Shown: positions 2,474-61,957 of the stretch, one piece after another
Position numbering within the stretch: the stretch's first letter is position 1
Layout of the letters: every line of letters starts with the position of its first letter
NCBI GenBank assembly: GCA_964457085.1
Contig: CAYWDM010000006.1
Coordinates: forward strand, 4,302 to 68,301
Reading direction: 5' to 3'
Length of the DNA: 64,000 bases
Source of the DNA: an uncultured Pseudomonadales bacterium
Lineage (GTDB): Bacteria; Patescibacteriota; Microgenomatia; UBA1400; PJMF01
Notes under the pieces: model-generated
What the model was told of the DNA's origin: nothing
The model's input: only the letters and a program-made list of their open reading frames with translations
Database searches by the model: none
Position numbers and translations under genes: made by a program

Positions 2474-3697
2474 CTACACTTGAAATTGACCATCAGCATA
2501 GATGACTTTTTCACTACCATCGGCCATGTATGCGGTCACCGTGCGATCGGTGGTTGAGATAATGTCGGTATGCTCTGGTGAGTCGTTATAGCCCAAACGC
2601 TTCCAATCAGCCTTTTTGAGCTTGGTGGGATCACCTTTGTAACAGTCCTGATAGGCCATGCCGATTGCTAAGTGGGTGTTACCAAATGGTCCACCAATAT
2701 TTTCATCAAACAATGTCTCGGCCATCACATGTGTGATGTGTGACATTCTCTTATCAGTCAAACTATACTCACCAATTTTGTCAGCATTCTTACTCTTTAA
2801 CATTTGCTGCAGCAATGAATTTCCCACTTCAGCAGAAGCATGAACCACTTTTCCTTTTCGTAGCTCTAACTCCACACCCTTGACCATGTTGCCATATCGA
2901 TATAAAGGTTGATTAAATTTAATCCAACCTTCCACACCACGCCAATCTGGTGAAGTGAAGATCTCGAAACTAGGAACGTTGCGACCGCCACCGCCTTTCC
3001 AAGTTCGATCAGCACCAATTTTGACTATCAAATCCATATCTGGTCCTTGAGCTTTTACATACTCAATTTTCATGGAATCCAGAGCTATCTTGATGTGATC
3101 TTGCAACTTACTCACTCGTTGCCACTCCGCCACTGGATTTTCATGATCCAAGAAACAGGCTTTAATGATTTGATCCCAATACTCCTTGAGCGACAAACCA
3201 ACCTCATCGGCTTTGGCTTGCATACCCCAAAGTGCAATGGTCCAAGTGAACTTATTAGCATTTTCCTTGGCAGTTAACCATTCACGGTAGGCTTTCTTAG
3301 AATCTCGTGACTTGAAAATCTTCTGAGGATCAACCTCACTCAGTTCCTTAGGATCTGGGTCAGCAATGATGCCAATTTGATGATCAATTAATTTTGCCCG
3401 TGCCTGCAAAAACTGCTTCGGAAAAAAAGTTAATTGCTGATCATTAGCTAAATTGAAAAACTGTTTATCAAAACCAGTGGGCAATAATCGCAACATCGGA
3501 ATACCACCAGCTAACAAAATCTCGGTTTGTAGTGCAAATGCTAGAGGCTTGGCCACGTCAGGCACTGCCAAATCAACCACCTCACCAGCTTTTAAACCAG
3601 TACCGGAATTCAATGCGAAATTGACCAATACTTGAGCATATTTTTTCAATAACTCAGCTGAGGGTTCAAAATCTGGGGTGATAGATGTTTGTTTCAT
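2474..3697 (-). CDS. aminopeptidase, M29 (AmpS/PepS) family
   Basis: 407 aa. Overall length and motifs (GIIADPDPKEL, WTIALWGMQ, GNTHLAIG) are consistent with thermophilic-type M29 aminopeptidases. Confidence 0.65.
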   Translation of the reverse strand: MKQTSITPDFEPSAELLKKYAQVLVNFALNSGTGLKAGEVVDLAVPDVAKPLAFALQTEILLAGGIPMLRLLPTGFDKQFFNLANDQQLTFFPKQFLQARAKLIDHQIGIIADPDPKELSEVDPQKIFKSRDSKKAYREWLTAKENANKFTWTIALWGMQAKADEVGLSLKEYWDQIIKACFLDHENPVAEWQRVSKLQDHIKIALDSMKIEYVKAQGPDMDLIVKIGADRTWKGGGGRNVPSFEIFTSPDWRGVEGWIKFNQPLYRYGNMVKGVELELRKGKVVHASAEVGNSLLQQMLKSKNADKIGEYSLTDKRMSHITHVMAETLFDENIGGPFGNTHLAIGMAYQDCYKGDPTKLKKADWKRLGYNDSPEHTDIISTTDRTVTAYMADGSEKVIYADGQFQV

Positions 3698-3771: not shown

Positions 3772-4386
3772 ATGTCCTATACCGCATATCAACCCACCGA
3801 AGAATTAAAAATTACTGATGGTCTGTATCGTACTAAATTCGACGGCTTATTTTATGTCACTTATCCTAGATTTGCAGACAATCGAGGTGTTTTTTCTGAT
3901 TTTTTCAAGATTCCTAAATTAAATCCCCTCATTGGTTTGAATTTTACTGCCAAACAGGTTAATTTTTCCTATTCGTATACTGGGGTGATTCGTGGCATGC
4001 ATGCTGAAGGTTGGAATAAAATGGTCACCATTTTAAATGGTAAAGCACTATGTGTGGAAGCAGATATTCGTCCTGAGTCTCCAACATTTGGTCAGACCGA
4101 GTATTTTGAGATTGGTTTTGACCCAGAAAGCAAACAGGGAGCTGGCCTGATTGTCAAAAAAGGCATTGCCAATTCTATCTGTGCACTCGAGGGACCAGTG
4201 AGTTATTTGTACGTAGTTGATTCGTTGTACGAAGATAGAGATATCGCTGGCGATCAAGCAGTTTCCATCTATGATCCAGACCTAAATATCTCCTGGCCAT
4301 TCACTCCAGAACAGACAATTATTTCAGATCGAGACAAACAAGCAGTAACTTTGCGCGAAAAATTTCCCCAAAAGTTTCAAAAATAG
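3772..4386 (+). CDS. dTDP-sugar 3,5-epimerase (RmlC)-like cupin
   Basis: DNRGVFSDFF, IRGMHAE, SPTFG and DPDLNISWP match the RmlC/cupin pattern. Start moved to MSYTAYQ (ATG 3772). No other rhamnose genes nearby. Confidence 0.55.
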   Translation: MSYTAYQPTEELKITDGLYRTKFDGLFYVTYPRFADNRGVFSDFFKIPKLNPLIGLNFTAKQVNFSYSYTGVIRGMHAEGWNKMVTILNGKALCVEADIRPESPTFGQTEYFEIGFDPESKQGAGLIVKKGIANSICALEGPVSYLYVVDSLYEDRDIAGDQAVSIYDPDLNISWPFTPEQTIISDRDKQAVTLREKFPQKFQK

Positions 4387-4405
4387 CCATAGATAGAGAT
4401 AATTC

Positions 4406-4435
4406 TTGTTTTTTGCCTGGTTGATTTGGTATAAT
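4406..4435 (+). promoter_or_regulatory. sigma-70-like promoter with extended -10 (TTGTTT-18-TGGTATAAT)
   Basis: Sequence match 30 nt upstream of the 4465 ATG. Confidence 0.4.
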
Positions 4436-24252: not shown

Positions 24253-24326
24253 CGGGGAGTAGTTCAGATGGCTAGAACGCGCGCATGGGGTGCGCGAGGT
24301 CGCAGGTTCGAGTCCTGTCTCCCCGA
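24253..24326 (+). tRNA. tRNA-Pro (anticodon GGG)
   Basis: Manual fold: acceptor CGGGGAG/CTCCCCG, D-arm GTTC/GAAC, anticodon stem CGCGC/GCGCG with loop AUGGGGU, T-arm GCAGG-TTCGAGT-CCTGT, discriminator A. Canonical G18G19 and T-loop. Confidence 0.85.
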
Positions 24327-24335
24327 CAAATAAAG

Positions 24336-24358
24336 AAACGGCTTTTGCCGTTTTTTTT
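24336..24358 (+). terminator. intrinsic terminator after tRNA-Pro
   Basis: AAACGGC-TTTT-GCCGTTT followed by T8. Confidence 0.7.
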
Positions 24359-24490
24359 ATTTGCCGAGAGATAGTTTGATGAAAACCTCTTTGGTTCCGC
24401 CGGAGAGTACAGAGTACCCTCCTAGTGCCCAATCAAGCGAAATCAATTTGCAACAAAATCATGAGCGTGATGAGGCTAATCCTGTCTCCC

Positions 24491-25024
24491 CTATTTTCCC
24501 TCAAAGTAATAACGATCAATCTTCCAATCTCTGTAAAATTCAGCAGTGCATTTTCCATCATCTGCAGAAGTGAGGATTATTGAATCAACCTCAAGTTTTT
24601 GAGGAATAATTATTTCTTTTGAAAGCGTTTCTCTGGTATTAAATGGAAGGTCGTGTTTATATATCAAGCTAACGTGTGGTTTAAATACAAAAGACAAATG
24701 AAGCTTATTATCCATTAACTCATAAATTCTCTTTAATTCAGGATGTGGCATGACATTTATGAACAATGTTTTTGAATTTTTCTCTTCAAACCCAATTACA
24801 CTCAGCTCAACTGAAAAAGATTTTGTCGTAGTTACAATCTCTGAAACAATTTCCTGAACAACTGTATCTGGTAGTGTGGTCAACGCATAAAAAGTCAGGT
24901 GAGGTAAGAAAATGCTTCCATCTTGAAATCTCTCGCTGAGAGATTTGATGATATCTGAAATCATTGCTTCACTAGCCGGACTAAATGCAAATGACCAATC
25001 ACCAGAAATTATTTTTTGACTCAT
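24491..25024 (-). CDS. 2H phosphoesterase (LigT-like 2'-5' RNA ligase / cyclic phosphodiesterase) family protein
   Basis: Two canonical motifs, PHLTFYAL and PHVSLIY, at the spacing expected for the LigT fold. Confidence 0.6.
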   Translation of the reverse strand: MSQKIISGDWSFAFSPASEAMISDIIKSLSERFQDGSIFLPHLTFYALTTLPDTVVQEIVSEIVTTTKSFSVELSVIGFEEKNSKTLFINVMPHPELKRIYELMDNKLHLSFVFKPHVSLIYKHDLPFNTRETLSKEIIIPQKLEVDSIILTSADDGKCTAEFYRDWKIDRYYFEGK

Positions 25025-27353: not shown

Positions 27354-28036
27354 TCAACATCGAGTGGCAAACGTTTTTCTAACCACTTTGCGACTTTTTC
27401 ATACTGGGTAAGTGGTGGTCGCTCAAACATTAGTACTTCAGACAAAATATCTTTGATCTGCTTCTTAGTGACGTCCCCGAGAACTAAGGAAATTCTGCCT
27501 GGGAAACGCATCGTTTCGATCACAACTTGCGGTTGGCCCATTTTATCCTCGAACCAAAATCTGCCAAATTCCTGCCAATAATACATCTCAGTATCAATCT
27601 TAATTCCATACGTGGTAATCAAGTGATTAATCTCAATTGGGGGTACCACTGATTGGACGTACACCAAAAAGACAGCCGAGATCACCACCGCAATTGGCAA
27701 ATACTGGCCAGCAAAAAATAGAATTAAGCTGATTAACAAGGCAATGATTAAAATTGTAGTGAAATATCGTTGATGTCTTTTCTTGAATGGACGGGTTAAT
27801 GCCCTCCACTCAATCACTTGCATCTCTGGAACAGGTCGATACATGCCTGGTGCAATTTTTGATTCCTGCAAGCTCGTATTTGGCATCACTGGTCTCAAAC
27901 CGGTTCGTTCGGTATCGACATCTCTAATTTGTTCTTCTAGGCCGCCAACTTGGTCGTCGCCAATTGGTCGAGTCTTCTTGAGATATTCAGTTGAAGTAAG
28001 GTTGACATTGTCTGCGTGAGTGGATTGCATTACCAT
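27350..28036 (-). CDS. hypothetical membrane protein
   Basis: Two central TM helices; no recognisable domain. Confidence 0.4.
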   Translation of the reverse strand: MVMQSTHADNVNLTSTEYLKKTRPIGDDQVGGLEEQIRDVDTERTGLRPVMPNTSLQESKIAPGMYRPVPEMQVIEWRALTRPFKKRHQRYFTTILIIALLISLILFFAGQYLPIAVVISAVFLVYVQSVVPPIEINHLITTYGIKIDTEMYYWQEFGRFWFEDKMGQPQVVIETMRFPGRISLVLGDVTKKQIKDILSEVLMFERPPLTQYEKVAKWLEKRLPLDVD

Positions 28037-28155
28037 CTATCATACACAAAAAATGCTCCCGATCAAAGCCAAGCGATGATACAATATCCCTCGTTAACAA
28101 CTGAACAGTTTACAAACCGTCAGTGTCGACGATAATTAGCTCGTTTACATTGAAA

Positions 28156-28240
28156 TGGAAGGATCGCATAGCGGTTTATTGCACAGGTCTTGAAAACCTG
28201 CGGCCTCACGGCCATCGCGGGTTCGAATCCCGCTCCTTCC
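28156..28240 (+). tRNA. tRNA-Ser (anticodon UGA)
   Basis: Acceptor GGAAGGA/TCCTTCC, anticodon stem CAGGT/ACCTG with loop CUUGAAA, long variable arm GCGGCCTCACGGCC, T-arm GCGGG-TTCGAAT-CCCGC, discriminator G. Confidence 0.85.
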
Positions 28241-28242
28241 GC

Positions 28243-28541
28243 ATCAGTCAGCATCCTTGCTAGTAAGCAAGGATTGATGAATGACGTGGAGGTGTGGTGA
28301 ATGAGAAATCGCTGGGTTCGTGACGGAGAGTGCAAAGCACCCTCCTAATGCATGCGAGCAAAGCGAGTCGTAAATCCCGCTCCTTCCGCATTGTTCGAAA
28401 ATCTCGGCTTGCCGAGTATTTGCGGACAACATGAAGTGGGATGAGAAGCAAGGTGCCTCGCCAAGCGAAAACAAAATCAATTGTAATCATGAGCCTGGAA
28501 AGGTGAATCCCGCCTACTACATCGACTGAAATCTCGGCTTG
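28243..28541 (+). repeat. two tandem degenerate repeat units downstream of tRNA-Ser(UGA), each ending in a copy of the tRNA 3' end (putative integration scars)
   Basis: AATCCCGCTCCTTCCGCA occurs at 28225-28242 (the tRNA) and again at 28373-28390. A degenerate third copy GAATCCCGCCTACTACA lies near 28506-28522. AAATCTCGGCTTGC occurs at 28399-28412 and 28526-28539. A perfect hairpin ATCCTTGCT-AGTA-AGCAAGGAT sits at 28252-28273. Confidence 0.6.
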
Positions 28542-28559
28542 CTAAACTACTCCAATTCC

Positions 28560-29384
28560 ATGCATCAACTTGCAAAAATCCTCCTCCAACTTCACAACTG
28601 GTTTTTAGCTCGACCACAATTTAAGTCAATAAATCTACACTTACTAAAGCTCAACCTGCGATCACTCGGAGTTCTCAACAGCGACACGGCAACAGTAACT
28701 GGTGAACCATATTGGCTAAGTAAACTTGCACAATCCGGACAAATTAACACCATTATTGATGTTGGTGCTAATGATGCGGCGTATGGAGCCACCGAATTAC
28801 CTAATGCACAGATATTTGCCTTCGAGCCACACCCAGCCAGTTATCAGAGATTAAAACAGCATGCACCTGCAAACGTCACTCCTGTCCACGCGGCAGTCGG
28901 AGATAGTGATGGCAAAACCACATTATGGGATTTTGCAGATAGTGCACCCAAAAAATCAGATCAACCAACTTCTCAACTCGCCTCACTATATAAAGAAGTA
29001 ATCACTAACCTACATGGACAACCAGCAAAAAAATACACAGTGCCACTGGTGAGTCTAGATGTTTTTGCCAAACAGCAACACATCAAACATATTGACCTCC
29101 TGAAAATCGATGCAGAAGGTCACGAACTAGTAGTACTGCGCGGTGCTAAAAAATTACTAGAAAATCAACAAATCAGCATCATTCAATTTGAATTCAATGA
29201 AATGATGGCGTATAGCCACACACATTTTTTTGATTTTGTGCAGCTGTTGCCAGATTTCACATTTTATCGATTATTGCCAACTGGCCTCTTGCCACTTGGG
29301 GCATATCGCCCACTCACCCACGAGATTTTTGGATTTCAAAATGTAGTTGCAATTAGTGGTCGCTTCCGGCTCAAAATAGAGTAA
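28560..29384 (+). CDS. FkbM-family methyltransferase
   Basis: IDVGANDAAYG, FAFEPHP and IDLLKIDAEGHELVVLRGA (Methyltransf_21 pattern). The ORF track starts at 28539; the start is moved to MHQLAKILL. Confidence 0.75.
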   Translation: MHQLAKILLQLHNWFLARPQFKSINLHLLKLNLRSLGVLNSDTATVTGEPYWLSKLAQSGQINTIIDVGANDAAYGATELPNAQIFAFEPHPASYQRLKQHAPANVTPVHAAVGDSDGKTTLWDFADSAPKKSDQPTSQLASLYKEVITNLHGQPAKKYTVPLVSLDVFAKQQHIKHIDLLKIDAEGHELVVLRGAKKLLENQQISIIQFEFNEMMAYSHTHFFDFVQLLPDFTFYRLLPTGLLPLGAYRPLTHEIFGFQNVVAISGRFRLKIE

Positions 29385-29399
29385 AATCGGCTGCTAGAT

Positions 29400-30248
29400 A
29401 TGGCAGAGCAACAGATAACCAGCTTTCCCCAATCAATTACTGCACATCCCGTAGAGGTATACCGGGAGATTGTGCATCCTCAAATTAGTCGCGTTACAGG
29501 ATCTCGAATTTATACACCAGGACCAATCACAAGTGGCTGGGCATTCAATCTCACTAGGGAGATGGCAGACGTTATCGCACTTAATCGAGAGTTTGCAACA
29601 AAATTTGTAGGCAATGTACTACTTAATAAGCAAAGACCAGTCATCGCACAACTACCAAATCTCACCATTCCACTTGACCAAACTCACATCACCCTACCTC
29701 ATGCACTTGGAGCTTGTGATTTTCCTCGGAATGGTAGTAGTGAAACTAAACGATGGGGCGAATTTAATTATTACGTTGTCTGGATGATGACGATGATGGG
29801 ACTTGAACCTGGTTTGGCAGGTGCCTTTTCTATAGCACTTGAAAAAGATGTTGATGTAAATATCGTCAATGATCGACATGGCATCAGAACCACACGAGTA
29901 GCTGAAGTGCAAAAAGTCTTCCATAACGCGGTGCGTTTTATGTCAGAACATAGAAAAGCAACTAGTCCTGCCACCGCCATCATTGCTCTACCTGAACCAG
30001 CACAAGATCACCATGAAGTCTCGGTTGGCACTGAGTTCGAAGCTCAAAGTGCTACAGCGTTTGGAATTCCATTAGCACAATTTGCAGTCAATGCGCAAAA
30101 TGTGATTGAGGCGAAAAGCGATCCTGATCCAGTCTGGGACGGACCAGTCGCTAGTTGGATGCTTTCTCAACTAGCTAATGCACCAGCTCAGGCTGAGTCA
30201 GATCAACTGGTCGATGTGGTGGCATATCGTCAAATGCAACCATGGTAA
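29400..30248 (+). CDS. hypothetical protein (282 aa)
   Basis: No recognisable motif. Lies between FkbM methyltransferase and LCP genes. Confidence 0.35.
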   Translation: MAEQQITSFPQSITAHPVEVYREIVHPQISRVTGSRIYTPGPITSGWAFNLTREMADVIALNREFATKFVGNVLLNKQRPVIAQLPNLTIPLDQTHITLPHALGACDFPRNGSSETKRWGEFNYYVVWMMTMMGLEPGLAGAFSIALEKDVDVNIVNDRHGIRTTRVAEVQKVFHNAVRFMSEHRKATSPATAIIALPEPAQDHHEVSVGTEFEAQSATAFGIPLAQFAVNAQNVIEAKSDPDPVWDGPVASWMLSQLANAPAQAESDQLVDVVAYRQMQPW

Positions 30249-61599: not shown

Positions 61600-61870
61600 G
61601 CTTTTCATATGTGGAAGTGGTGGCCACTTTGCGGCATTAGGCGTGAGCTTCGCTCTCGCCGGCGGGGTCAAATAACTCCCAACCCCAATCAACTCATAAA
61701 AAAATCCCGCCTACAGCGGGTTTTCTTGTACTTGCGGAAGTGGTGGGGTTCACCTTTCCACGCTCATACACAATAAATTAAATTTTCGTATTCGCTTGGC
61801 GAGGTACCTTGCTTTCTCACCCACTCTCATAAGTACAAAAAAGCCCGCCTACAGCGGGTTTTCTTGTACT
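61600..61870 (-). repeat. two tandem repeat units downstream of tRNA-Ser(GGA), each ending in a copy of the tRNA 3' end plus a terminator hairpin
   Basis: CCCGCCTACAGCGGGTTTTCTTGTACTTGCGGAAGTGGTGGGGTTC at 61706-61751 duplicates 61846-61889. A degenerate third copy GTGGAAGTGGTGGCC lies near 61603-61620. Confidence 0.6.
61838..61870 (-). terminator. intrinsic terminator after tRNA-Ser(GGA)
   Basis: CCCGCUGUAGGCGGG followed by U6 on the minus strand. Confidence 0.7.
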
Positions 61871-61872
61871 TG

Positions 61873-61957
61873 CGGAAGTGGTGGGGTTCGAACCCACGAA
61901 GCCCTTTCGAGCTCACGCTTTCCAGGCGTGTGCAATAGACCACTATGCGACACTTCC
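61873..61957 (-). tRNA. tRNA-Ser (anticodon GGA)
   Basis: Acceptor GGAAGTG/CACTTCC, anticodon stem CACGC/GCGTG with loop CUGGAAA, long variable arm, T-arm GTGGG-TTCGAAC-CCCAC, discriminator G. Confidence 0.85.

Follow-up and report, generated by a model that had tools for sequence, protein, structure and literature searches.

The tRNA-Ser(UGA) gene in the 64 kb stretch of DNA analysed here (the window) is followed by two tandem units, X and Y, that end in copies of the 3′ end of that tRNA, and by the beginning of a third period. Judged from comparative sequence analysis, the locus is probably an array of the elements known as tRNA-linked repeats (TLRs) that would give rise to read-through trailer RNAs, and not a set of integrase scars. 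By architecture the locus is a TLR: every defining TLR feature that can be read from sequence is present. The element is of a known but neglected kind (TLR/RtT), for which both the phylum and the tRNAs that it follows are new.

Duplicated tRNA 3′ ends are the classical signature of attachment (att) sites. A first-pass annotation of the window took the locus for the attL/attR footprint of a tyrosine or serine integrase, pictured repeated integration and excision at a hotspot, and regarded the downstream genes as possible residual cargo; a family of tRNA-targeting miniature elements was named as an alternative. The comparisons described below contradict the three integrase claims and confirm a tRNA-associated family of units.

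Anatomy of the array behind tRNA-Ser(UGA)

The direct repeat that bounds unit X was recovered by a repeat finder as 19 nucleotides (nt), AATCCCGCTCCTTCCGCAT, with exact copies at 28226-28244 and 28373-28391 and a start-to-start spacing of 147 (Table 1). The repeat had been recognized as exact in the first pass; its length and spacing, given there as 18 nt and 148 nt, had to be corrected. When up to three mismatches are allowed, AATCCCGCTCCTTCCGCAT has only these two matches in 64 kb, the shuffle expectation being 0.02, and two or more matches occurred in none of 100 shuffles. A third copy of the tRNA 3′ end, AATCCCGCCTACTACA, lies at 28506-28521, 133 nt after the second. Here the first 8 nt (AATCCCGC) are exact and the remainder is decayed, with scattered positions kept. 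This copy is genuine by homology, because the orthologous position in L002, one of the two closest relatives (related loci carry L numbers), is an exact copy of the 3′ end of L002's own tRNA. A 14-nt motif, AAATCTCGGCTTGC, is found exactly at 28399 and 28529. Both the degenerate copy and the doubled motif had been reported earlier and hold as described.

In the best-preserved arrays, one period runs from the final ~19 nt of the tRNA through a hairpin into a structured body, which measures about 85-110 nt. This order accounts for the doubled 14-nt motif, since the start of the next hairpin repeats after the last tail; the array comprises ~2.1 periods. The layout of a 3′-end copy followed by a duplicated hairpin is intact at the tRNA-Ser(GGA) of the window and at the tRNA-Thr of L154. 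Units begin 1-3 nt past tRNA-Ser(UGA) on the + strand, and likewise lie immediately downstream and on the same strand at tRNA-Pro and tRNA-Ser(GGA), which carry two further arrays of the window. The tandem arrangement noticed in the first pass was borne out, and both units are homologous members of a family tied to tRNA 3′ ends.

Table 1. Coordinates of the tRNA-Ser(UGA) array and of the two further arrays in the window
Feature	Position	Strand	Remarks
Promoter-like site TTTACA-16-GATAAT, ~20 nt 5′ of tRNA-Ser(UGA)	28109-28136	+	surroundings conserved in L002 and L003
tRNA-Ser(UGA), CCA not encoded	28157-28242	+	ARAGORN and Rfam
Repeat copy 1, last 19 nt of tRNA-Ser(UGA) plus trailer	28226-28244	+	
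Unit X, first unit	28245-28391	+	absent in the closest relatives L002 and L003
Unit Y, second unit	28392-28521	+	orthologous units in L002 and L003
Third, incomplete period; 5′ arm of the unit Y hairpin repeated, with the second 14-nt motif (28529-28542)	28522-28542	+	runs into the start region of the FkbM gene
Second array, tRNA-Pro(GGG) plus one unit	24253-24496	+	
Third array, tRNA-Ser(GGA) plus two units	61609-61957	-	

Unit X has a 5′ hairpin (28253-28274) without a U-tract and contains the segments GUGGAGGUGUGG..GAAUGAGAAA, of which GUGGAGGUGUGG is able to pair with the entire tail. An internal T-arm-like GGGTTCG corresponds to the 5′ half of the T-arm. A hairpin module, GGAGAGTGC-AAA-GCACCCTCC-TAATGC at 28325-28351 (as RNA, GGAGAGUGC-AAA-GCACCCUCC-UAAUGC), recurs in the tRNA-Pro unit of the window and in unit 2 of L017 with a compensatory G-C to A-U change. 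The unit ends in the exact 19-nt copy of the tRNA 3′ end at 28373-28391, and its predicted fold has -60 kcal/mol (z = -5.2). Unit Y contains a terminator-like hairpin, CTCGGC-TT-GCCGAG at 28403-28416, followed by UAUUU. Further elements are the 5′ strand of a helix designated P1, GTGGGAT at 28436-28442, together with GAGAAG, the helices P2 and P3 around CCAAGCGA...GAGCCTGG, and the decayed 3′-end copy (28506-28521) as its tail. Positions 28433-28521 were aligned end to end by a covariance model.

L002 and L003 each have just one unit behind the tRNA. It is a homologue of unit Y and in L003 is truncated. In a three-way alignment the window differs from L002 and L003 by a clean, repeat-bounded extra segment of 147 nt, made up of unit X plus the 3′-end copy, and the unit boundaries are therefore sound. 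The unit Y copy in L002 is exact to its own tRNA (AATCCCGCCCCTTCCGCA) and differs at one position from the window tRNA. By this comparison unit Y is ancestral and common to the closest relatives, because L002 and L003 each have a single Y homologue and the L002 copy matches its own tRNA; unit X would have been either added later between the tRNA and Y or lost in L002 and L003.

The promoter-like site listed in Table 1 is likely the start of a transcript that would comprise the tRNA plus the units, and no canonical terminator was found between tRNA-Ser(UGA) and the FkbM gene when 27950-28650 was inspected. Coding potential of the units was considered and rejected. Minus-strand open reading frames (ORFs) of 76-78 amino acids (aa) are unsupported, and an AUG inside GGAUGAGAAG, a core motif of the units, opens only short frames of inconsistent lengths, with 1-nt indels (GAGAAG versus GAGAAAG) between close relatives. 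The units are treated as non-coding for these reasons. A hammerhead-like GAUGAG...CGAA was also set aside, since its core nucleotides and the position of stem II misfit and Rfam gave no match.

Units behind other tRNAs and the integrase question

Of the four tRNAs in the window, tRNA-His alone has no unit; the other three are followed by units whose tails match the respective tRNA. The three arrays consist of two units plus a partial period, one unit, and two units, respectively. Two family models were applied, R1 built from short forms (with unit Y in the training set) and R2 built only from the long-form units of relatives; the tRNA-Pro unit lies outside the training set of R1, and the first tRNA-Ser(GGA) unit outside that of R2. 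The tRNA-Pro(GGG) gene at 24253-24327 is followed by a terminator-like hairpin (~24338-24358) and by a unit in which an X-type hairpin module is combined with a Y-type CAAGCGA..GAGCGTG helix. This unit is matched by R1 at 24425-24478 (25.3 bits, E = 7e-5), and its tail (24480-24491) reproduces 12 nt of the tRNA-Pro 3′ strand exactly. Two spurious ORFs, 24361-24573 and 24425-24583, overlap the unit.

The tRNA-Ser(GGA) gene lies at 61957-61872 on the minus strand. Its first unit (61871-61733) is of the short Y-type, very like unit Y, and ends in an exact copy of the 3′ end of that tRNA, after which the terminator is duplicated. The resulting direct repeat, 3′ end plus terminator, measures 53 nt with 98% identity and a period of 138, and terminator-like hairpins at 61858-61844 and 61720-61706 flank the unit. 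A second unit extends from 61732 to about 61609 and ends in CCACCACTTCCAC. The tRNA-Ser(GGA) unit is matched by R2 with 23.7 bits (E = 8e-4).

Related loci were retrieved by means of a flanking 228-aa protein, for which, as for a second protein (P0001), a look-up of the exact sequence gave no record. This gave 80 further loci, in most of which tRNA-Ser(UGA) is divergently adjacent to the gene of that protein; L001 is identical to the window and was left out of comparisons. In the window plus L002-L084 (83 related loci) 154 tRNAs were tallied for copies of their last 12 nt with at most one mismatch within 400 nt. Such a copy lies downstream of 15 of the 154 tRNAs, the first copy always at 86-140 nt, and upstream of none (0/154). 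The carriers are tRNA-Ser(UGA), Ser(CGA), Ser(GGA), an ARAGORN-called Ser(ACU), and Arg(GCG). About a dozen loci carry units whose tail copies the 3′ end of the local tRNA, one or two at each. A pattern scan of metagenomes returned 85 matches, about 10 of which are real units and most of the others chance matches in coding regions. These units lie behind tRNA-Ser(GGA), Ser(GCU), a tRNA-Thr(CGU) with an exact Thr tail, and a tRNA-Arg(GCG) with a degenerate Arg tail. Across the compared sequences, the tail of a unit in most cases tracks the local tRNA. Empty sites, for which a check had been suggested in the first pass, exist as well: about 40 related loci have no unit, and L002 and L003 lack unit X.

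L046 has two nearly identical units, one behind tRNA-Ser(UGA) and the other, 3.5 kb away, behind tRNA-Ser(CGA) (669-754 and 4319-4408, each with the downstream 150 nt). The unit at the UGA locus carries the tail of the CGA tRNA and has three mismatches to its own tRNA, which is direct evidence that units are copied between tRNA loci. At L135 (~900-1300) and L155 (~480-680) several unit modules are arrayed with no intact tRNA upstream, and in L155 an apparent decayed tRNA precedes the unit. A different conserved element of ~55 nt, GAAAAGTTCTGAnAGACCCGTCTAATA(n6-8)AATGGGTTGATGG, stands directly after tRNA-Ser(UGA) in L029, L054, L050, L007 and L033, and in L024 after the unit of tRNA-Ser(CGA). 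Rfam gave no match for this element at E <= 5; it may represent a further small RNA or the terminal part of a gene on the opposite strand.

If the repeats were integrase footprints, they would represent attL/attR cores of one or more tRNA-Ser-targeting elements that accumulated in tandem and have since been nearly all deleted, with the downstream genes as leftover cargo. Unit X is a precise insertion bounded by a 19-nt repeat, relatives show the corresponding "empty" state, and the tail in L046 mismatches its own tRNA as a foreign attP might. This origin is nevertheless very improbable. The foreign tail in L046 comes from another tRNA of the same genome, 3.5 kb off, and not from an outside element. 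Homologous bodies are found behind Pro, Ser (all anticodons), Thr and Arg tRNAs, mostly with locally matching tails, and since the same bodies follow many tRNAs in this manner, one integrase with one attB site does not fit. The first copies are clustered within the narrow range given above and are exclusively downstream; because unit sizes cluster so tightly, random decay of kilobase-sized elements is unlikely. Moreover, the bodies have conserved helices with compensatory changes, and the duplicated segment often runs through the terminator, up to 53 nt, and does not resemble a crossover core. The bodies were not recovered from viral contigs, where the Y-type pattern had three matches, all by chance in coding sequence, and the X module none; plasmids were not searched.

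The neighbourhood of the array leads to the same conclusion. No integrase, excisionase or phage gene was found within about 8 kb on either side in the ORF list and with Pfam, and the G+C content is flat across the window. On the upstream side are genes for RNase Y, RecA, tRNA-Pro, a 2′-5′ RNA ligase-like protein, a PIG-L protein, a glyoxalase, a methyltransferase, a peroxiredoxin and the 228-aa protein, which is a membrane protein. Downstream of tRNA-Ser(UGA) follow an FkbM methyltransferase, a 282-aa protein, LCP, Crp, an M23 peptidase and FtsX/FtsE. In L002, whose flanking protein is 70% identical and which has one unit only, the genes between FtsX and PIG-L are arranged in an identical order, and the syntenic genes there belong to ordinary families throughout. 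Because the downstream genes are kept in order in L002, they are ordinary syntenic chromosome and not cargo. The outcome named in the first pass as refuting its reading was found in half: the units are not unique to this locus, but no relative provides an integrase link. The 282-aa protein gene (29400-30248, +) has no Pfam match, and in L002 a pair of short gene calls (146 and 66 aa) takes its place, so that this gene may be in decay or evolving fast. The names attached to homologues of the flanking 228-aa protein are Woesebacteria, Pacebacteria or Patescibacteria, and from these names the source of the window would be a Patescibacterium of the Microgenomates type.

Predicted structure of the units as RNA

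Y-type units share an order of structural elements; unit X is built differently. The Y-type begins with a 5′ hairpin, which in many loci is a true terminator with a U-tract and which shows many compensatory changes. It is followed by G(Y)GGGAU-GAGAAG and by a CCAAGC/GCCUGG helix, flanked by GA..GA, around a variable hairpin; long-form units have an additional arm, UACUG..CAGUA. The 3′ part consists of (A)AAUCCC plus the T-stem 3′ strand and the acceptor 3′ strand of the local tRNA. Helix P1 is predicted to form by pairing of GYGGGAU with AUCCCRC of the tail. The P1 pair beside GGG/CCC varies among units as U-A, C-G, G-C or U-G, and in the tRNA-Ser(GGA) unit the P1 A-U pair is replaced by G-C along with the unusual AACCCC T-loop of that tRNA. 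Compensatory changes are also seen in the P3 helix and in the hairpins. Overall the bodies are modular, with X-, Y- and Z-type modules in varied combinations.

Three unit folds are more stable than those of shuffled sequences (z = -5.2, -4.3 and -4.1). R2 matches unit Y with 23.8 bits (E = 8e-4); R1 gives it 92.8 bits, unit Y being a member of that training set. Further units detected by R1 are located in L057, L017, L003, L012, L068, L151, L135, L121 and L137. In an alignment of 18 units, 90% of the cells are paired, versus 81% in shuffles and 20-45% in slid controls. Double-sided changes occur in 9 of 15 pairs, versus 3.5 ± 1.2 in shuffles, a level reached by 0/500 shuffles.

Degenerate tRNA or transfer-messenger RNA (tmRNA) genes could account for some of these features, the units then being decayed tRNA-Ser pseudogenes or tmRNA-like pieces that kept the T-arm and the acceptor 3′ strand. 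The T-arm 5′ half in unit X would agree with this, as would the short Y-type units in which UGGAAAGG stands beside GAAUCCC.., like an acceptor 5′ strand fused to a T-loop. Such an origin has very little probability, as ARAGORN finds no tRNA or tmRNA in the units, Rfam has none at E <= 10, and the same body is found behind tRNAs of different identity, hence is not a decayed copy of any single one. A resemblance of some stretches to the 3′ region of E. coli tmRNA (ssrA) received no support from ARAGORN or Rfam.

Several observations weigh against the favoured reading. The covariation figures come from a model-fitted alignment and are hence biased toward the structure. The P1 5′ strand may be a mere copy of the tRNA T-stem 5′ strand, L067 keeping even the tRNA's U-U mismatch, and because of this P1 covariation alone is no proof of selection on RNA structure. 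Unit X is matched poorly by the Y-type models R1 and R2 (10.5-12.7 bits). About 75% of related loci have no unit and the unit Y tail is decayed; because of this patchy distribution and the decayed tails the element would seem dispensable.

One alternative is a selfish or neutral DNA repeat, generated by partial tandem duplication of a tRNA plus its terminator or by a miniature element homing to tRNA 3′ ends, in which the RNA is without a role. The occurrence of units in roughly a quarter of the related loci, the decay of the unit Y tail, the truncation in L003 and the copying between loci all agree with it. The period itself resembles a tandem duplication with the body replacing the 5′ two-thirds of the tRNA, and the TLRs of E. 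coli are without known function (PMC8144298). L082 has a plain partial tRNA duplicate with a T-loop insertion: ~100 nt downstream of its tRNA-Arg(GCG) (3483-3555, -), the tRNA is repeated from the anticodon stem onward, with a 20-nt insertion inside the T-loop, up to the acceptor 3′ strand. This partial copy may represent a unit at the beginning of its formation. A neutral or selfish repeat is a serious alternative with regard to function, not with regard to identity, and on balance it is unlikely. Body motifs are conserved among genomes whose flanking proteins share no more than 45-55% identity, and this conservation extends even to E. coli; neutral DNA is disfavoured because the motifs are kept across such divergence. 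The compensatory stem changes and the folds steadier than shuffles also stand against it. An RNA role is favoured over pure junk because of this conservation and these changes.

Proposed mechanism and relationship to known systems

The TLRs of E. coli, for which the names rtT RNA and rttR are also in use, comprise 22 units; the ten loci concerned belong to tRNA or rRNA operons and have one to five units each. They are recognized by a terminal stretch of 18-19 bp that is the same as the 3′ end of the gene directly upstream (PMC8144298). The first example came from tyrT, where a 178-bp unit is present in 3.14 copies (Egan & Landy 1978, as cited in PMC8144298), and other sources are Rudd 1999 and Bosl & Kersten 1991, as cited in the same article. 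TLRs have no known function, an early claim having been withdrawn; three of them, which sit in rRNA operons between the two terminators, are made by read-through transcription and in vitro are bound by Hfq and CsrA, and the repeated 3′ end has been proposed as a processing signal (PMC8144298).

Sequence links between the two groups were found in both directions. In the E. coli K-12 tyrT region the units have the form ...GGGGAAGGATGAGAAGCTTCGACCAAGGTTCGA...GCGAAGCGCGCAGCGCTGAGTAATCCTTCCCCCACCACCA, and the annotated rttR RNA has its end precisely at the CCA of this copy. R2 places all four E. coli tyrT units, in register, at ranks 3, 4, 7 and 8. Local alignment of the bodies, stripped of their tRNA-derived tails, gives GGATGAGAAG--TCGACCAAG as the best match, with a score of 31, which 0/1000 dinucleotide shuffles reach. 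The Rfam family RtT (RF00391) aligns with the L067 unit, the best relative, through GGAUGAGAA, CGACCAAG, GCGAAGCG and the P1 helix, by which the 5′ region is joined to AUCC and the tail. This match has 26.4 bits and lies below the gathering score of 45, with an E-value of 0.003 in a search of 286 nt and of 0.43 in 39 kb. The other search results likewise argue for caution: RtT has no match at E <= 10 on the window units (28050-28650), an nhmmer profile of E. coli units found nothing significant in 1 Mb of loci, and the tyrT units score just 10.9-14.6 bits with R2 (E = 0.13-0.94 in 66 kb). Common descent with the RtT RNA family is probable but not proven. As a separate observation, Rfam RF02223 (sX4, a small RNA of Xanthomonas) gives 24.1 bits at 28149-28302 of the window and 30.7 bits at 186-338 of L067, the gathering score being 70. 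These matches span the tRNA plus the start of the first unit, and the consensus end UUGGGGGGUGAGA pairs with the CCCCCC of the tRNA. This end resembles the P1 5′ strand, which hints that TLR-type units may also be present in Xanthomonas.

We propose that transcription from the tRNA promoter would read through the weak hairpins, which are without good U-tracts, into the units. Each unit would then fold so that its 5′ segment, G(Y)GGGAU in the Y-type, pairs with AUCCC(R)C of the tail to form P1, closing a P2/P3 junction. The tail, together with the hairpin after it where one is present, would recreate the sequence context of a true tRNA 3′ end, and the machinery for tRNA 3′-end maturation and termination could act at the tail and release one small RNA per unit, for which the RttR of E. 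coli provides a precedent. Arrays may gain and lose units through unequal recombination, for which the repeated segments (3′ end plus hairpin) of up to 53 nt would serve. After units have been copied between tRNA loci, gene conversion or selection would bring their tails into agreement with the local tRNA. For the released RNA, our best guess is either a small RNA whose amount would follow tRNA transcription or a role in buffering 3′-end processing.

The literature that was searched treats TLRs only in E. coli and related enteric bacteria. Here the TLR architecture, the core motif, the association with several tRNAs, the compensatory changes and the copying argue for an evolutionarily maintained RNA module and not for a local accident, and the window family adds divergent sequences for structure modelling. 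It is a more tentative thought, and one we hold to be rather doubtful, that TLRs in general are ancient and widespread modular structured RNAs, extending from Enterobacterales to the candidate phyla radiation, each fusing a body to the tail of the local tRNA. Were this so, a conserved body (the core GGAUGAGAAG plus helices), fused to a T-arm and acceptor 3′ strand copied from the tRNA that it follows, would take over the machinery of tRNA 3′-end processing and termination, bodies would move between tRNA loci and re-adapt their tails, and comparative data would permit a structure-based approach to TLR function, unsolved since 1978. For annotation, a short duplicated tRNA 3′ end 90-180 nt downstream need not mean an integrated element.

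Among known systems, the attL/attR sites of tRNA-integrating islands and prophages share with the window locus a direct repeat of the tRNA 3′ segment, a repeat-bounded presence/absence polymorphism and occasional tandem arrays. They differ in that the window locus is without integrase or cargo and has a conserved structured module of ~130 nt between the repeats, a module that in this family serves many tRNAs and whose repeat often takes in the terminator. 3′ETS-leuZ (mentioned in PMC8144298) is a further case of a functional or stable RNA derived from a tRNA 3′ trailer, as predicted from sequence for the window RNA; it is not a repeat, however, and has no copy of a tRNA 3′ end. The RrA/RrB/RrF units of E. 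coli also place a body between two terminator hairpins, T1/T2 of rrnA, rrnB and rrnD (PMC8144298), but there the upstream gene is 5S rRNA and CsrA and Hfq are bound via GGA motifs, for which the window family has no CsrA/Hfq pointer.

The closest resemblance is to the TLRs of E. coli, from which the window family differs in phylum (Patescibacteria versus Enterobacterales), in having shorter and modular bodies, in its location mostly at tRNA-Ser genes without encoded CCA, and in lacking a counterpart of the tpr reading frame; its sequences also fall under the Rfam gathering score, and a hidden Markov model search makes no connection. In both groups one to five tandem units of about 100-180 nt are positioned directly downstream of a tRNA gene on the same strand, several such loci exist per genome behind different tRNAs, and the last period is fractional (3.14 repeats in E. 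coli, about 2.1 at the window locus). The last 18-19 nt are identical to the 3′ end of the upstream tRNA, 19/19 in unit X; the copy is exact in unit 1 of tRNA-Ser(GGA), exact over 12 nt in the tRNA-Pro unit, and decayed in unit Y but exact in its L002 counterpart. An internal copy of the T-arm 5′ half is present as GGGTTCG in unit X and as AAGGTTCGA in E. coli, and both groups appear to have in common the core GGAUGAGAAG(..)CGACCAAG plus a helix to AUCC and the T-stem 3′ strand.

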